From contig JACPIH010000002.1 in assembly GCA_016188155.1 (NCBI GenBank), positions 1 through 63,398 of the forward strand: a stretch of 63,398 nt of DNA. The letters run 5' to 3'. The notes beneath the pieces are model-generated. The model made no database searches and was not told the origin of the DNA. It was given only the letters and a program-made list of their open reading frames with translations. The position numbers and the translations under genes are program-made. Source of the stretch: Candidatus Woesearchaeota archaeon. GTDB lineage: Archaea > Nanobdellota > Nanobdellia > Woesearchaeales > UBA10216. This document shows, piece after piece, positions 1,132 to 49,372 of this stretch (the stretch's first letter is position 1; the number at the start of each line of letters is the position of its first letter).

Positions 1132-1216
1132 CGGGTTTAATTTTATCAAGATAGGCGGGTTTTCGAATTACATTTAACTATAATTATGTAGCATTGTCTG
1201 CCGGGCTGCTGCGAAG

Positions 1217-1518
1217 GTGCAAATCAGTTACGCCGATTGCACAGGTCGGCAGTGGCCGACCGTGCAATCCTGCCGATGCAGGATTTGCACACAGCATCGG
1301 CAACAGCCGATGCGTATAGGCGGCGTAACCGCCTATATTCCGCATAGCGGAATTGTGTCCAGTGGCTTCTGAAGGCGTTTTTGCGGCTTCTTGTGAATAA
1401 AATGCTGAAAAACTTGCGGCTGACGTTAAAAGAATTTCGGAATTTTAGTGGCACTGGTCACTGGACAATACCACGTAGGGTATTTAAGCCAGAAGGCTGC
1501 ATAAACCGGTTATGCAGC
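1217..1518. repeat. Intergenic array of perfect GC-rich hairpins (composite palindromic repeat element)
   Basis: Stems at 1235-1269 (15 bp, one bulge), 1294-1313 (8 bp), 1315-1337 (9 bp), 1337-1353 (7 bp) and 1496-1518 (9 bp). Long-range pairings 1217-1225/1282-1290 and 1356-1364/1459-1467. Confidence 0.85.
1354..1421. repeat. ~68-bp dispersed direct repeat, copy 1
   Basis: tgtgtccagtggcttctgaaggcgtttttg... aligns with 6799-6866 tgtgtcaagtggcttcttcaggcgtttttg... Confidence 0.75.
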
Positions 1519-1554
1519 GGGTTATGGTCTTAGTGGCGCATGTAAACCATCACA

Positions 1555-1596
1555 TTTAAATACTAAAGCGTATTTTTGCGTATTTATGGGTACGCA
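1555..1596 (+). promoter_or_regulatory. TATA box and probable RHH operator of the mazF-type TA operon
   Basis: TTTAAATA at 1555-1562. GCGTATTT is repeated at 1568-1575 and 1578-1585 (10-bp spacing), with an inverted TACGCA at 1591-1596 just inside the antitoxin CDS. Confidence 0.55.
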
Positions 1597-1828
1597 GATA
1601 AGCTTGAAGCTGTCGGAGAAAATGCTGGTCATAGCAAAGAGGTATGCAAGAAGGCAGGGATACGATAACCTGCAGGACTTCATCAGGGAAATGCTAAGGG
1701 AGAAGCTATTTGACAGGGAAAATATCAGCGGGCTTAACACTTACAGAGCAAGCGAGGCATCACTTGCCAGAAACTGGCTGAGAAAAGAAGAGGACGAGGC
1801 ATGGGAACACTTACAAAGGGAGATGTAG
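1586..1828 (+). CDS. Ribbon-helix-helix (CopG-like) antitoxin
   Basis: 80 aa. N-terminal beta strand QISLKL followed by helices (..GYDNLQDFIREMLREKL). Acidic WLRKEEDEAWEHL tail. Overlaps the downstream toxin gene by 28 nt. Confidence 0.8.
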   Translation: MGTQISLKLSEKMLVIAKRYARRQGYDNLQDFIREMLREKLFDRENISGLNTYRASEASLARNWLRKEEDEAWEHLQREM

Positions 1829-2136
1829 TACTTTTCCCTTTTCCTTACACTGACTTGAGCGACAGAAAGCTCCGCCCCTGCCTGGTGCTCTCAGAGGAGA
1901 TGAGTGACGATATAATTCTGTGCCAGATTACCTCGCAGCGGCTGCGAAAGGATGAGTATTCTGTTGACCTGAAACCGGCAGATACGACAGATGGAACCAT
2001 AATGATTGACAGCTACGTCAGGGCAAACATGATATTCACCGCAGCCAAAGCGCAGATACGCAGGAAGCTGTGCAAAGTCAAAGATGATAAATATAAGCAG
2101 GTCACAAACATCATTACAAAAATAATTGCAAAATAG
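1801..2136 (+). CDS. mazF: PemK/MazF family type II toxin (endoribonuclease)
   Basis: KGDVVLFPFPYTDLSDRKLRPCLVLS...LCQITS is the typical PemK/MazF signature. 111 aa, directly downstream of an RHH gene. Confidence 0.9.
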   Translation: MGTLTKGDVVLFPFPYTDLSDRKLRPCLVLSEEMSDDIILCQITSQRLRKDEYSVDLKPADTTDGTIMIDSYVRANMIFTAAKAQIRRKLCKVKDDKYKQVTNIITKIIAK

Positions 2137-2204
2137 CTGCGAACTTCTCGACTTATCATGCAAGGCAATACCTATTTAAATGCCTGTAGCATGCTGCTTT
2201 CTGA

Positions 2205-6788: not shown

Positions 6789-6798
6789 CCTTTTGGCC

Positions 6799-6866
6799 TG
6801 TGTCAAGTGGCTTCTTCAGGCGTTTTTGTTGGCTGCTGTGAGTGAAACGTTGAAATTCTTCCGGTT
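6799..6866. repeat. ~68-bp dispersed direct repeat, copy 2
   Basis: Homologous to 1354-1421. Lies between the converging ybaK and fic genes. Confidence 0.75.
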
Positions 6867-6906
6867 ATGGCTGGAAAAAAAATATCGTATGGGCACAATT
6901 TGAGGA

Positions 6907-7845
6907 TTATTGTTTTTTGCTGTGCCCGTAACTTCTTATTTGATCTATAATCAACCGCAGCATCCTGGAGACATATTCCTTATAATTGCCCTTATCAGCA
7001 AAATCCAATGATTGATAATATTCTTCTCTTTTCTCAAAAGGGATAAAGAACATAGGGAATCCTTTTCTCATCAGGATAAAATTCATAAGTGTTCTCGCAG
7101 TTCTGCCATTTCCATCTTCAAAGGGGTGTATCCAAGTTAATTTTGCATGAGCCAAAGCAGCTAATTCAAAGGGGTGCAGCTTATTTTTATTTGCACTATA
7201 CCACTTAAAGAAGTTAAGCATGTGTTTCTTGACTTCAGTATGCGGCGGTGGAACATGAGTTGAGCCCTGTATCTGCACATCAAAGAAGCGCATTCTTCCA
7301 CCATAAACCACGCCAGTATTTTTAGTAAGGATTCCATTTACTTTTTCAAGAAATTTAGTGTTTAATTCGCCTTTATACGATTTTATGTAATCTAAGCATT
7401 CTTTGCCGTTTATTGCCTCATTATAGTCCTCTGCCCTCACTCCAGAAGGGATAACTTTATCTTTTAGGATAAGGGCAGTTTGCCTTAATGTCAGCCTATT
7501 GCCTTCAATTGCGTTAGAATGATAGGTAAACCTAATTACAAAATCTTCATTCAGCTTTTCTTTAACACTTTTGGGAATCTGCTTAAGCCATGTGCTGTAA
7601 CTTCCTTTTAAATCCTGCAAAGTTTCTGCGTCATGCTCTGACAGGCAAGCGTAGTTTGATAATTTCAAGAATGGCTTTGCTTTATCTTCTATTTCTTTAG
7701 CATGTTTTTTTAGTTCTTCCTTTGAAGGTTTTTTATCTCCCAAGAAAATCCTGATTTTTTTCCATTTGTTTAAGCTGAGCCTTACATTTTTGGTAAAGTA
7801 GTAATATTCCTTATTATTCCGTTTTATTGTTTCTATGTAGGCCAT
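6907..7845 (-). CDS. Fic family protein (class II, internally autoinhibited AMPylase)
   Basis: Canonical HPFEDGNGRTAR motif, with the inhibitory SNAIEG [(S/T)xxxE(G/N)] motif N-terminal to it. Start placed at ATG 7845, about 23 nt below a TATA box (ORF track starts at 7863). Confidence 0.9.
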   Translation of the reverse strand: MAYIETIKRNNKEYYYFTKNVRLSLNKWKKIRIFLGDKKPSKEELKKHAKEIEDKAKPFLKLSNYACLSEHDAETLQDLKGSYSTWLKQIPKSVKEKLNEDFVIRFTYHSNAIEGNRLTLRQTALILKDKVIPSGVRAEDYNEAINGKECLDYIKSYKGELNTKFLEKVNGILTKNTGVVYGGRMRFFDVQIQGSTHVPPPHTEVKKHMLNFFKWYSANKNKLHPFELAALAHAKLTWIHPFEDGNGRTARTLMNFILMRKGFPMFFIPFEKREEYYQSLDFADKGNYKEYVSRMLRLIIDQIRSYGHSKKQ

Positions 7846-7854
7846 ACCATATTG

Positions 7855-7898
7855 TATGTGCACATAATATATAAATGTTTCGGTTATTTGTGCACATA
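7855..7898 (-). promoter_or_regulatory. fic promoter: TATA box flanked by two TGTGCACA palindromes
   Basis: TTTATATA on the minus strand at 7868-7875. Perfect palindrome TATGTGCACATA at 7855-7866 and a second TGTGCACATA at 7889-7898. Confidence 0.6.
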
Positions 7899-23229: not shown

Positions 23230-23375
23230 CTTTCACAGCCCTTTTGTTCGCTGATGCTCACAAAAGCCCAAGACGCCTTTGAGGGCGTCTGGGCACAGTC
23301 GTCAGCTGACGACTTGTGCGCTGGCGGAAAAACGTTTTCCGTCAACGCTTTTTTCGCGCACGAAAAAAGGGTTGG
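23230..23375 (-). other. 146-nt non-canonical tRNA intron in the T loop (59/60) with a strict bulge-helix-bulge
   Basis: Central helix U54U55C56A57/UGAA, 3-nt bulges AA|C and AG|U, and outer helix CA(A)CCC/GGG(C)UG. The interior consists of five hairpins. Confidence 0.88.
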
Positions 23376-48583: not shown

Positions 48584-49372
48584 TCACCTTTCCTTTTTCC
48601 TGCACACCATGATTATGTGGCTTCCTATGTTGGGAGAGTAATCGCCCAGCTTTATGGCAAGCGACCTAAGGAGAGGGATGTTGTACTGGACAGGGAACAT
48701 CAAGTTGGAACTCAGCTTTTTAATTACTGAGAAATTATGTTCCCGTAATTGCTGCTCAAGAGCCGGGAACGTGTAGTTCCTGATGTGGCCTGCATTGTCC
48801 TTTCCAAGCCGAACCTCGCTGCCTACAGGAAGCTTCCCAAACAAGAGCATGACCCTATTAGAGAGCGAAGCAAGGTTAGGGGTGGTTACGATAAAAATGC
48901 CATTTGGCTTCAACACCCTCCAGACTTCCCCGATAAAAAAATCGGTGTCATAAAGGTGTTCTATAATGTCGCCAGCGTAAGCAGCATCGAAAAGATTGTC
49001 ATGAAACGGGAATGCCTCCTCTGCGCTGCCAACAAATGCCCTAATCCCCTTCTTCCTTGCCTTCGCAACCTCAATCCTGCTTATTTCAAGACCAGCAACG
49101 TCGTAGCCAAGCGACTTCAGGCGCAGCGCAAAGGTTCCGTCCTGGCAGCCAACATCAAGCAGCTTAAGCGGCTTTTCAGCATCGGCAGCAGCCGATGCGT
49201 ATTGGCTATCAGCCAATATCCCGTGGTTAAGCTTCCTGAAGATACTGTAAGCCTTTTCGCGGTAAATGTACACGGGCCGGCGCACAGGCTTAAGATTATA
49301 ATCGCCCTCGTAATAATCCTTTACGCTGCGCCCCTTATGCTTTTTTATCGGTTTCATAAGCATTGACGTCAA
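48584..49372 (-). CDS. Class I SAM-dependent methyltransferase (type 11) with an in-frame hairpin-repeat insertion
   Basis: LLDVGCQDG, GDIIEHLYD, RVLKPNG and TTPN motifs. The start may be ATG 49363. Confidence 0.88.
   Translation of the reverse strand: MTSMLMKPIKKHKGRSVKDYYEGDYNLKPVRRPVYIYREKAYSIFRKLNHGILADSQYASAAADAEKPLKLLDVGCQDGTFALRLKSLGYDVAGLEISRIEVAKARKKGIRAFVGSAEEAFPFHDNLFDAAYAGDIIEHLYDTDFFIGEVWRVLKPNGIFIVTTPNLASLSNRVMLLFGKLPVGSEVRLGKDNAGHIRNYTFPALEQQLREHNFSVIKKLSSNLMFPVQYNIPLLRSLAIKLGDYSPNIGSHIIMVCRKKER
49178..49219. repeat. Two-hairpin repeat module inside the methyltransferase CDS
   Basis: 49177-49202 matches 1292-1317 at 25/26 nt. Adjacent hairpin tattggct-atc-agccaata. The segment encodes ILADSQYASAAADA. 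Confidence 0.8.

Follow-up and report, generated by a model that had tools for sequence, protein, structure and literature searches.

The region examined here lies near the start of a 63,398-nt window, which is the first 63 kb of contig C36 in the genome of a Woesearchaeota archaeon (G000; a 1.07-Mb assembly in 41 contigs with 48% G+C). A 454-bp spacer (1132-1585) separates a 5'-truncated M23-like gene from a two-gene operon encoding an RHH antitoxin and a MazF toxin, and about 300 bp of it are crowded with stems. In the first-pass annotation, this segment was regarded either as a large composite copy of a repeat family or as a structured non-coding RNA (ncRNA) from which smaller modules elsewhere derive. 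We consider it probable that the region consists of two unrelated layers, namely a promoter/regulatory element (hereafter, the host element; 1166-1216 and 1354-1500) and a nest of non-autonomous palindromic mobile elements. The features of the two layers and of the operon are as follows.

1166..1216, + strand: left block of the host element, with the TATA-like CATTTAACTATAATTATGTAGCATTG at 1171-1196; conserved in seven of nine aligned copies
1217..1242, no strand: hairpin H0, GTGCAAATCAGTTACGCCGATTGCAC, left half of the primary two-hairpin unit H0+H5
1243..1290, no strand: DH, a double hairpin of 48-50 nt (stems 1240-1264 and 1265-1287), placed after the ...TTGCAC of H0
1291..1336, no strand: two-hairpin unit H3-H4 at the H0/H5 junction (H3 1294-1313, GCATCGGC/GCCGATGC; H4 1315-1337, TATAGGCGG/CCGCCTATA)
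1337..1357, no strand: hairpin H5, ATTCCGC-ATA-GCGGAATTGTG, right half of the primary unit, adjoining the heptad
1354..1451, + strand: central conserved part of the host element, GGCTTCTGAAGGCG, with a T-run at 1378-1382, GTGAATAAAAT at 1393-1403 and ATTTCGGAAT at 1434-1443; invariant or nearly so in 19 copies
1356..1364, - strand: distal inverted heptad TGTCCAGTG, the reverse complement of CACTGGACA; invariant in 19 copies, with the nest inserted at its boundary
1452..1467, + strand: tandem-heptad box CACTGGTCACTGGACA, with one mismatch (A to T) to the consensus CACTGGACACTGGACA, 13 nt upstream of a TATA box
1481..1488, + strand: TATA box of predicted promoter P1, TATTTAAG, 13 nt 3' of the box, in the architecture of other box promoters
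1554..1562, + strand: second TATA-like box, ATTTAAATA, of the predicted near-leaderless promoter P2, 24-31 nt before the antitoxin ATG; conserved in G004:C13 and G009:C2
1586-1828, + strand: RHH/CopG-like antitoxin gene (weak CopG_antitoxin match, E 0.006)
1801-2136, + strand: PemK/MazF toxin gene (Pfam PemK_toxin PF02452, E 4.9e-14, 52.9 bits)

The operon places a PemK-fold toxin behind a small antitoxin gene that it overlaps by 28 nt, which is the arrangement of a type II toxin-antitoxin (TA) system, in line with the MazF operon named in the first-pass annotation. Comparisons were made with ten congeners (genus g1; G001-G010), with 40 relatives for BLAST of positions 1132-1600, and with a set of 41 genomes for counts of the box. 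The comparison assemblies are incomplete metagenome bins, and G000 itself is 88.7% complete. Two alignments were used most: A1, of the BLAST matches to 1132-1600, and A2, of 19 copies of the host element from 10 genomes. Loci in other contigs are given as genome and contig.

A repeat search and a census of perfect hairpins identified four perfect stems of 8-9 bp (1266-1285, 1294-1313, 1315-1337 and 1496-1518), three near-perfect stems (1217-1242, 1240-1264 and 1337-1357), and two long-range helices of 9 bp each (1217-1225 paired to 1282-1290, and 1356-1364 to 1459-1467), in agreement with the at least six stems and two long-range helices originally reported for about 300 bp. RNA folding of 1195-1525 gave -147.4 kcal/mol (z -7.6) for the + strand and -131.6 kcal/mol (z -8.3) for the - strand, DNA folding of 1195-1355 gave a z of -7.4, and no shuffled sequence folded as well as either native segment. 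Across the genome, 175 perfect hairpins (stem of at least 8, loop of 3-7) were observed versus 49-62 in shuffles, and the 300-bp bin with the nest was the richest of all, with four.

Folding of this strength (z -7.6), the intergenic position upstream of an operon, and the advantage of about 16 kcal/mol of the + over the - strand would be in accordance with one large structured ncRNA, the shorter modules elsewhere being its fragments or derivatives. However, the z of the - strand was equal or better, as for DNA palindromes. No Rfam family reached its gathering threshold in the whole window (the best permissive match within 1000-1800 was Mahella-1, at 23.4 bits versus 70.7), and ARAGORN with default settings detected no tRNA in the 63 kb, so that the Rfam check reclassified nothing and the reported lack of an RNase P, signal recognition particle or tRNA consensus held. 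Related copies of the host element were found without the hairpins or with subsets of them, each module has its own copy family and contexts, including an open reading frame (ORF) at 49177, and the spacer is nonexistent at the syntenic place in congeners. With hairpin-free and intermediate copies, no syntenic spacer, folding of both strands and an empty Rfam result, an ncRNA source of the modules was not supported, and we regard it as highly improbable. A tRNA half or split tRNA at 1517-1560 was rejected, as D-arm and T-arm pairing is absent there. A small RNA running from the left TATA-like block to the T-run at 1378-1382 is a bare possibility at most, as the GGCTTCTGAAGGCG segment displayed no consistent compensatory pattern by eye in A2. 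With introns allowed, ARAGORN reported many tRNA genes in G000, with introns of 40-315 nt.

Repeat families in G000 were collected with blastn at a word size of 9. Each unit of the nest had copies elsewhere in G000 and in all ten congeners, and the short-word self-BLAST proposed at first reading thus showed that the modules do recur. Elsewhere in the genus, H0 is joined straight to H5, reading GTGCAAATCGGC-loop-GCCGATTGCAC followed by ATTCCGC-loop-GCGGAATTGTG in 21 aligned units. DH copies 92% identical to that of the nest were found in G000 at C40:5813-5863 and C6:20392-20442, each in the loop of an H0-like hairpin, with further copies in C11 and C2 of G000 and at least 15 in congeners. H3 with variant H4 stems occurs in C14, C39 and C41 of G000 and at window position 49177, where a relative of H3-H4 lies inside a methyltransferase ORF (49177-49223). 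The filled junctions of the nest, those with its flanks included, are GCGAAG/GTGCAAATC, GGAATTGTG/TCCAGTG, TTGCAC/AGGTCGG and TTTGCAC/ACAGC.

Three matches within the window had been reported for this region, and two of them stood. Positions 1292-1321 were 93% identical to 49177-49206, and 1354-1421 matched 6799-6866 at 79% over 66 nt, this "68-bp repeat" being a partial copy of the host element (nhmmer E 1e-18). The third, between 1239-1265 and a tRNA-intron hairpin at 23293-23319, was weak, as the two have only the outer GCACA/TGTGC stem and a general shape in common and differ in the inner stem, and it was reduced to a family resemblance. In the same way, the description as a composite copy of a repeat family applied to 1217-1357, which comprises four units with copies elsewhere, but not to 1358-1518, which belongs to a conserved promoter element.

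Empty sites and intermediates of the nest were identified in A1. In six copies, the host element contains no hairpins (G004:C13, G004:C11, G005:C8a, G002:C34, G009:C2 and G009:C3), and these sites read ...GCAGGGTG directly into TCCAGTGG, or more fully GCATTGGCT-N(~15)-G(G/A)TG and then TCCAGTGG. Relative to them, the window holds 138 extra bases, which can be placed as 1217-1354 or as 1220-1357. H0+H3+H4+H5 without DH, otherwise collinear with the window, was found in G005:C8b, G006:C41 and G009:C6. The H3-H4 unit, of 44-46 nt, stands between H0 and H5 in these three and in G008:C10, with 99% identity to the window in G009:C6, and DH is in none of the four. H0+DH+H5 without H3-H4 was detected in G001:C41 and G001:C92.

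From these intermediates and the copy families, the simplest history is H0+H5, then H3-H4, then DH. A H0+H5 unit would first have landed precisely at the edge of the distal heptad (GTG^TCCAGTG), a H3-H4 unit would then have entered the H0/H5 junction (GCAC^A), and DH would finally have entered the new H0/H3 junction, after GCAC once more. Both long-range helices arise as by-products: 1217-1225 pairs with 1282-1290 because DH ends in TTTGCAC like H0, and 1356-1364 pairs with 1459-1467 because the heptads stand inverted to each other.

In the 21 aligned H0+H5 units, 99.5% of the stem cells were paired and compensatory changes were found at four pairs (13 cells), a result matched by none of 500 shuffles. 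The three-base termini and the central CAC of the unit covary in three ways (GTG/CAC/GTG, GCG/CGC/GCG and GTA/TAC/GTA). Exact-stem copies of H5 numbered 36; every one came from genus g1, and 30 further genomes of the order yielded none.

Stems maintained by compensatory changes would also be found if the hairpins were kept for a function in place, as terminator or insulator of the M23-like gene, as an RNA-stabilising 3' end or as a cruciform spacer, with their association with the box (described below) reflecting selection. The nest begins 85 nt past the upstream stop codon, with no clear oligo-T terminator between, and hairpin-type terminators follow tRNA genes in G000. In contrast, no T-run follows the nest hairpins, and the units are also present in ORFs, in tRNA introns (by the weak hairpin match) and in unrelated spacers. 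Hairpin-free elements precede the same kinds of genes, and the units are limited to one genus while box promoters extend throughout the order. Maintenance for such a function appears quite unlikely, and we retain the reading of mobile hairpins nested in a regulatory element.

The host element was defined by A2, in which the invariant blocks follow one another in the order TAACTATAATTATGTAGCATTGGC, TGTGTCCAGTGGCTTCTGAAGGCGTTTTTG, GTGAGTAAAAT, GAAAGATTT(A/T)CGG, CACTGGACACTGGACA and GGTAT(A/T)TAAGC. The genes behind its copies include RHH-MazF operons (G004:C13 and G009:C2), which are orthologous to that of the window, a pair with a weakly BrnT-like toxin (G005:C8 and G008:C14), and Bro-N proteins whose C-terminal part is weakly DinD-like (G006:C41, G005:C42, G007:C14 and G003:C2). 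A divergent ORF begins 0-60 nt from the left block in G004:C13 and G009:C2, and the left block may be part of a leftward or bidirectional promoter. In the window, the nest separates the distal heptad from this TATA-like block, which faces the divergent gene in the two relatives. Transcription from P1 is predicted to start near 1505-1512, and P1 would drive the TA operon in addition to P2. The nest lies outside the interval from heptad to box and is presumably tolerated rather than functional, judging from its position.

The box consists of two CACTGGA heptads followed by CA, and an inverted single heptad stands about 95 bp further upstream in the host element. Its consensus CACTGGACACTGGACA was found at 13 sites in G000, the window copy being the 14th, with one mismatch, and a TATA box follows every site after 13-15 nt; the window box likewise precedes its TATA box at this distance and faces a gene, that of RHH-MazF. 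In G000, the box precedes a small gene for a PC4-like protein with radA (Rad51 family, E 7e-80) behind it, and also a fused primase, NreA, a Bro-N protein, and a PD-(D/E)XK/Cas4-like nuclease followed by an ORF that by eye resembles the RFC small subunit. Its other sites lie in front of an unknown small protein with an HVO_A0114-type helix-turn-helix (HTH) protein next in line, five LAGLIDADG genes, and the MazF operon. Of the 41 related genomes, 35 contain the 16-mer, most members of the family having 5-20 copies, while a reversed control pattern gave one match in the 41. In at least 20 genomes, which represent at least 15 genera, a cross-check of coordinates with RadA matches placed the box 50-670 nt upstream of radA and on its strand. 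When 15 promoters of radA operons were aligned (A6), only the 16-mer and the TATA box were invariant, and the mismatch variant of the window is the radA box of G040. NreA and primase were rejected as conserved members of a box regulon, as their association holds only within the genus and the radA operon alone is conserved throughout the order. The box is most likely a regulator-binding site for a set of DNA-repair, SOS-like genes, to judge from the genes behind it, and the TA operon would then be under control of the same putative regulator. Literature searches for the 16-mer, for palindromic repeats in DPANN and for archaeal radA promoter motifs returned no description of the box or of the hairpins, the radA motif search yielding only Sulfolobus systems.

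The H0+H5 units are associated with the heptads well beyond the window. Within genus g1, 12 of the 36 exact-stem units adjoin TCCAGTG. In at least seven promoters (G006:C1, G003:C11, G001:C55, G005:C47, G010:C20, G001:C64 and G009:C6), the box is split exactly between its two heptads, so that the sites read TGTCCAGTG^[44-90 nt]^TCCAGTG, or CACTGGA^CACTGGACA-N-TATA on the promoter strand, with flanks, H0 stems and loops that differ among the sites. A unit follows the second heptad in G008:C1, and in the window H0+H5 stands immediately 5' to the single inverted heptad. In G009:C2, a unit likewise divides the TA promoter, while the orthologous promoters of G004:C13 and G000 are intact. As the number of heptads is equal in filled and empty sites, the unit brings no heptad along. 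TCCAGTG occurs 114 times on both strands of the 1.07 Mb, which sets chance adjacency at 5e-5 per oriented position, and the binomial P was about 1e-13 even for four independent events among 28, the events being counted by eye from the flanks. When hairpins of all kinds were considered, a hairpin ended at most 3 nt upstream of a heptad run at one of 30 sites in G000 under strict criteria, versus 1.4% of random positions, and the claim is therefore confined to the H0+H5 family. Since the hairpins are found in the genus only while the box reaches 30 other genomes of the order, the hairpins are young and the box is old.

Beyond the association itself, the heptad box might serve as a landing pad as well as for regulation: a putative heptad reader would nick or break DNA there or keep it single-stranded, and hairpins would insert at this place and at junctions of earlier hairpins ending in CAC/GTG. 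We hold this to be a speculative and rather unlikely extension. A candidate for the reader may be a protein of the LAGLIDADG or HTH-LAGLIDADG type that is itself encoded behind a box. As to mechanism, the favoured possibility is that the units would move as folded single-stranded DNA or be captured at a heptad site that is broken or marked by a protein.

Several points weigh against the interpretation outlined above. The insertion points are fixed only to 3 nt owing to the GTG at both unit ends; classical miniature inverted-repeat transposable elements have terminal inverted repeats, a target-site duplication and an autonomous IS relative, whereas this GTG flanks H0+H5 on both sides but may belong to the unit, and no related autonomous element was seen in the Y1 and TnpB searches. 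A single event underlies some of the heptad-adjacent copies as paralogues or orthologues, namely those in the four host elements and perhaps those of G006:C1, G010:C20 and G001:C64, so that independent insertions are fewer than 12, and the heptad excess could have arisen from retention instead of targeting. The window box has one mismatch and a TATA spacing of 13 nt rather than 15 nt, and with a TATA-like box beside the antitoxin start, the operon may depend mainly on a promoter other than that of the box. A single-heptad box promoter precedes a tRNA-Met gene (C27:21034-21267, - strand), so the box is not confined to repair genes and a repair regulon is not its sole reading. Finally, a six-frame search for the Y1 transposase (PF01797), to which positive controls responded, gave no match in the 88.7% complete G000 or in eight of the ten hairpin-bearing congeners, and no TnpB-type genes were found in G000.

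The last two results bear equally on the possibility that a Y1 HUH transposase (RAYT/TnpA), an enzyme that recognises hairpins and integrates beside a short target word in single-stranded DNA, moves the hairpins as a REP/BIME-like or IS200/IS605-derived, PATE-like system. Such a system would fit the short imperfect palindromes with conserved bulged bases clustered in arrays, the lack of a long target duplication, and the fixed short word (GTG/CAC, or the heptad boundary) in fixed orientation, and Y1_Tnp genes were detected in two congeners (G002 and G005) as well as elsewhere in the order. On the other hand, the missing Y1 and TnpB-type genes and the termini GTG.../...GTG, which differ from the GTAG of REPs, argue against it, and we judge it unlikely.

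The mobile hairpins of the preferred reading share traits with several known systems. Like REP/BIME elements of Proteobacteria, which have RAYT (Y1) transposases, the nest units are short (20-50 nt) imperfect palindromes in extragenic clusters, without long target duplication and spread in one lineage, and the nest, with seven stems in 1217-1357 and as the densest hairpin bin of the genome, is such a palindrome cluster. Unlike those elements, which have a GTAG head and a cognate RAYT/Y1 gene, the nest units have the termini GTGCA.../...TTGTG or CACA.../...TGTG and no such gene was found in G000; they also occur in ORFs, nest at fixed junctions and favour a promoter heptad. PATEs of IS200/IS605 resemble H0+H5 in having hairpins at both ends, a fixed orientation to a target word, and no duplication beyond the ambiguous 3 nt, whereas here TnpA and TnpB were not found in G000 and the units enter at the edge of a 7-nt regulatory repeat or where earlier hairpins join. 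Rickettsia palindromic elements are non-autonomous palindromes of 100-150 bp in bacteria, in which a transposase, inverted terminal repeats or a target duplication are not recognisable; they lie in frame in protein genes and also in RNA genes. The relative of H3-H4 within the ORF at 49177 is reminiscent of them, although the nest locus itself is intergenic, and the nest units differ in being 20-50 nt long, archaeal, modular and nested. To our knowledge, no preference of the Rickettsia elements for a regulatory heptad has been described. Correia/NEMIS elements and promoter-associated miniature inverted-repeat transposable elements are likewise small repeats that land in promoter regions and are able to alter promoter architecture. 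Correia elements, however, are bounded by inverted terminal repeats, show a TA duplication and contribute parts of promoters, whereas the nest units split or flank the upstream box and bring no recognisable promoter part. The box itself is comparable to the A(N)TTTC motif of Sulfolobales (PMC5817253) and the LexA SOS box of bacteria as a short conserved word at promoters of recombinase, nuclease, TA and DinD-like genes, but it differs from both in its tandem CACTGGA heptads, its fixed position 13-15 nt upstream of the TATA box, and its DPANN lineage.

The host element and the operon together form a larger unit.

1132..2160, + strand: lineage-specific cassette of about 1.03 kb (regulatory element, RHH antitoxin and MazF) inserted between the M23-like and DUF460 genes

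A gap of 50 bp separates the M23-like gene from the DUF460 gene in G009. In G008, the closest relative (DUF460 protein 90% identical), the spacer contains a remnant of a VOC-family gene and neither the TA operon nor the hairpins. Homology with relatives restarts at GCAAGGCAATACCTATTTAAA, the DUF460 promoter near 2160. As the whole of 1132-2160 is missing between matching flanks in both genomes, the cassette is specific to the window lineage; comparison with the syntenic spacer, a check suggested in the first-pass annotation, thus revealed that the spacer is absent there, which speaks against a source ncRNA.

Two further features of the window belong to this region or resemble it.

1496..1518, no strand: perfect 9-bp hairpin GCTGCATAA-ACCGG-TTATGCAGC, at or just past the predicted P1 start, between the two TATA boxes of the TA leader
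6798..6896, + strand: partial second copy of the host element, with the heptad variant TGTCAAGTG and without the box (nhmmer E 1.1e-18)

The hairpin at 1496-1518 has no second copy in G000, and the orthologous TA leaders in G004:C13 and G009:C2 lack it. The partial copy adjoins a convergent Fic gene (6907-7863, - strand; Fic Pfam E 1e-20) at its 3' end, an arrangement kept in G005:C8a and G004:C217, and any transcript from 6798-6896 would therefore be antisense to the 3' end of Fic.

Other observations were made on hairpins and box promoters. About 30 hairpins of the form GACC(C/T)TTTT-N3/4-AAAA(G/A)GGTC were distributed across G000 (e.g., C13:33848, C16:13676 and C25:5090), several of them directly 3' of tRNA genes; they are probably bidirectional terminators, a family separate from the GC-rich mobile hairpins. 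The promoter of the tRNA-Met gene carries a second CACTGGACA-TTTCCGGAAAC 87 nt upstream, and a near-identical 85-nt spacer was found at C38:13191-13330 (+ strand), followed by an apparent duplicated 5' part of tRNA-Leu. The five LAGLIDADG_3 genes (C15:4133, C23:3450, C25:11014 on the - strand, C28:6530, and C38:117 on the - strand) each stand behind an exact box and TATA box and have in common a conserved leader of about 190 nt, which starts with GGCTCGGAGGACCGCAGAGCTGCC about 25 nt after the TATA box and may represent either a structured leader at the 5' end or a piece of a mobile unit. A module of about 75 nt, comprising CACTGGACA, a hairpin, TATCCAGTG, a second hairpin and the box, is common to the primase promoter of G000 (C24:3323-3396, - strand) and the radA promoter of G008, and whole upstream modules, beyond the box alone, seem to be exchanged between promoters. 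The split-box promoter of G009:C6 (104200-107000), which contains H0+H3+H4+H5, drives an operon for proteins of 110 and 124 amino acids (612-944 and 235-609 of the locus, both on the - strand) that resembles another TA pair. In G011, G015, G022 and G024, open frames of about 800-850 amino acids show the RadA match in separate pieces, which suggests inteins in radA of several relatives.

With the two layers separated, a conspicuous RNA-like region is accounted for without a new RNA, and the locus preserves a rare stepwise record, in a reduced archaeal genome, of the passage from an empty site through intermediates to a nest of four units. New here are the placement of a third of the exact-stem H0+H5 units at a heptad boundary and the series of promoters with a split box, which tie these units very strongly to the tandem CACTGGA box of radA, repair, nuclease and TA genes of Woesearchaeota-type archaea. 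If this association reflects targeting, a mobile element would be linked to a regulon, with a handle on both the mobilising enzyme and the protein that reads the box. If the heptads were indeed landing pads, the hairpins would constitute a novel class of mobile DNA in archaea, one homing to a transcription-factor site of the repair regulon and able to switch promoters by splitting their box.

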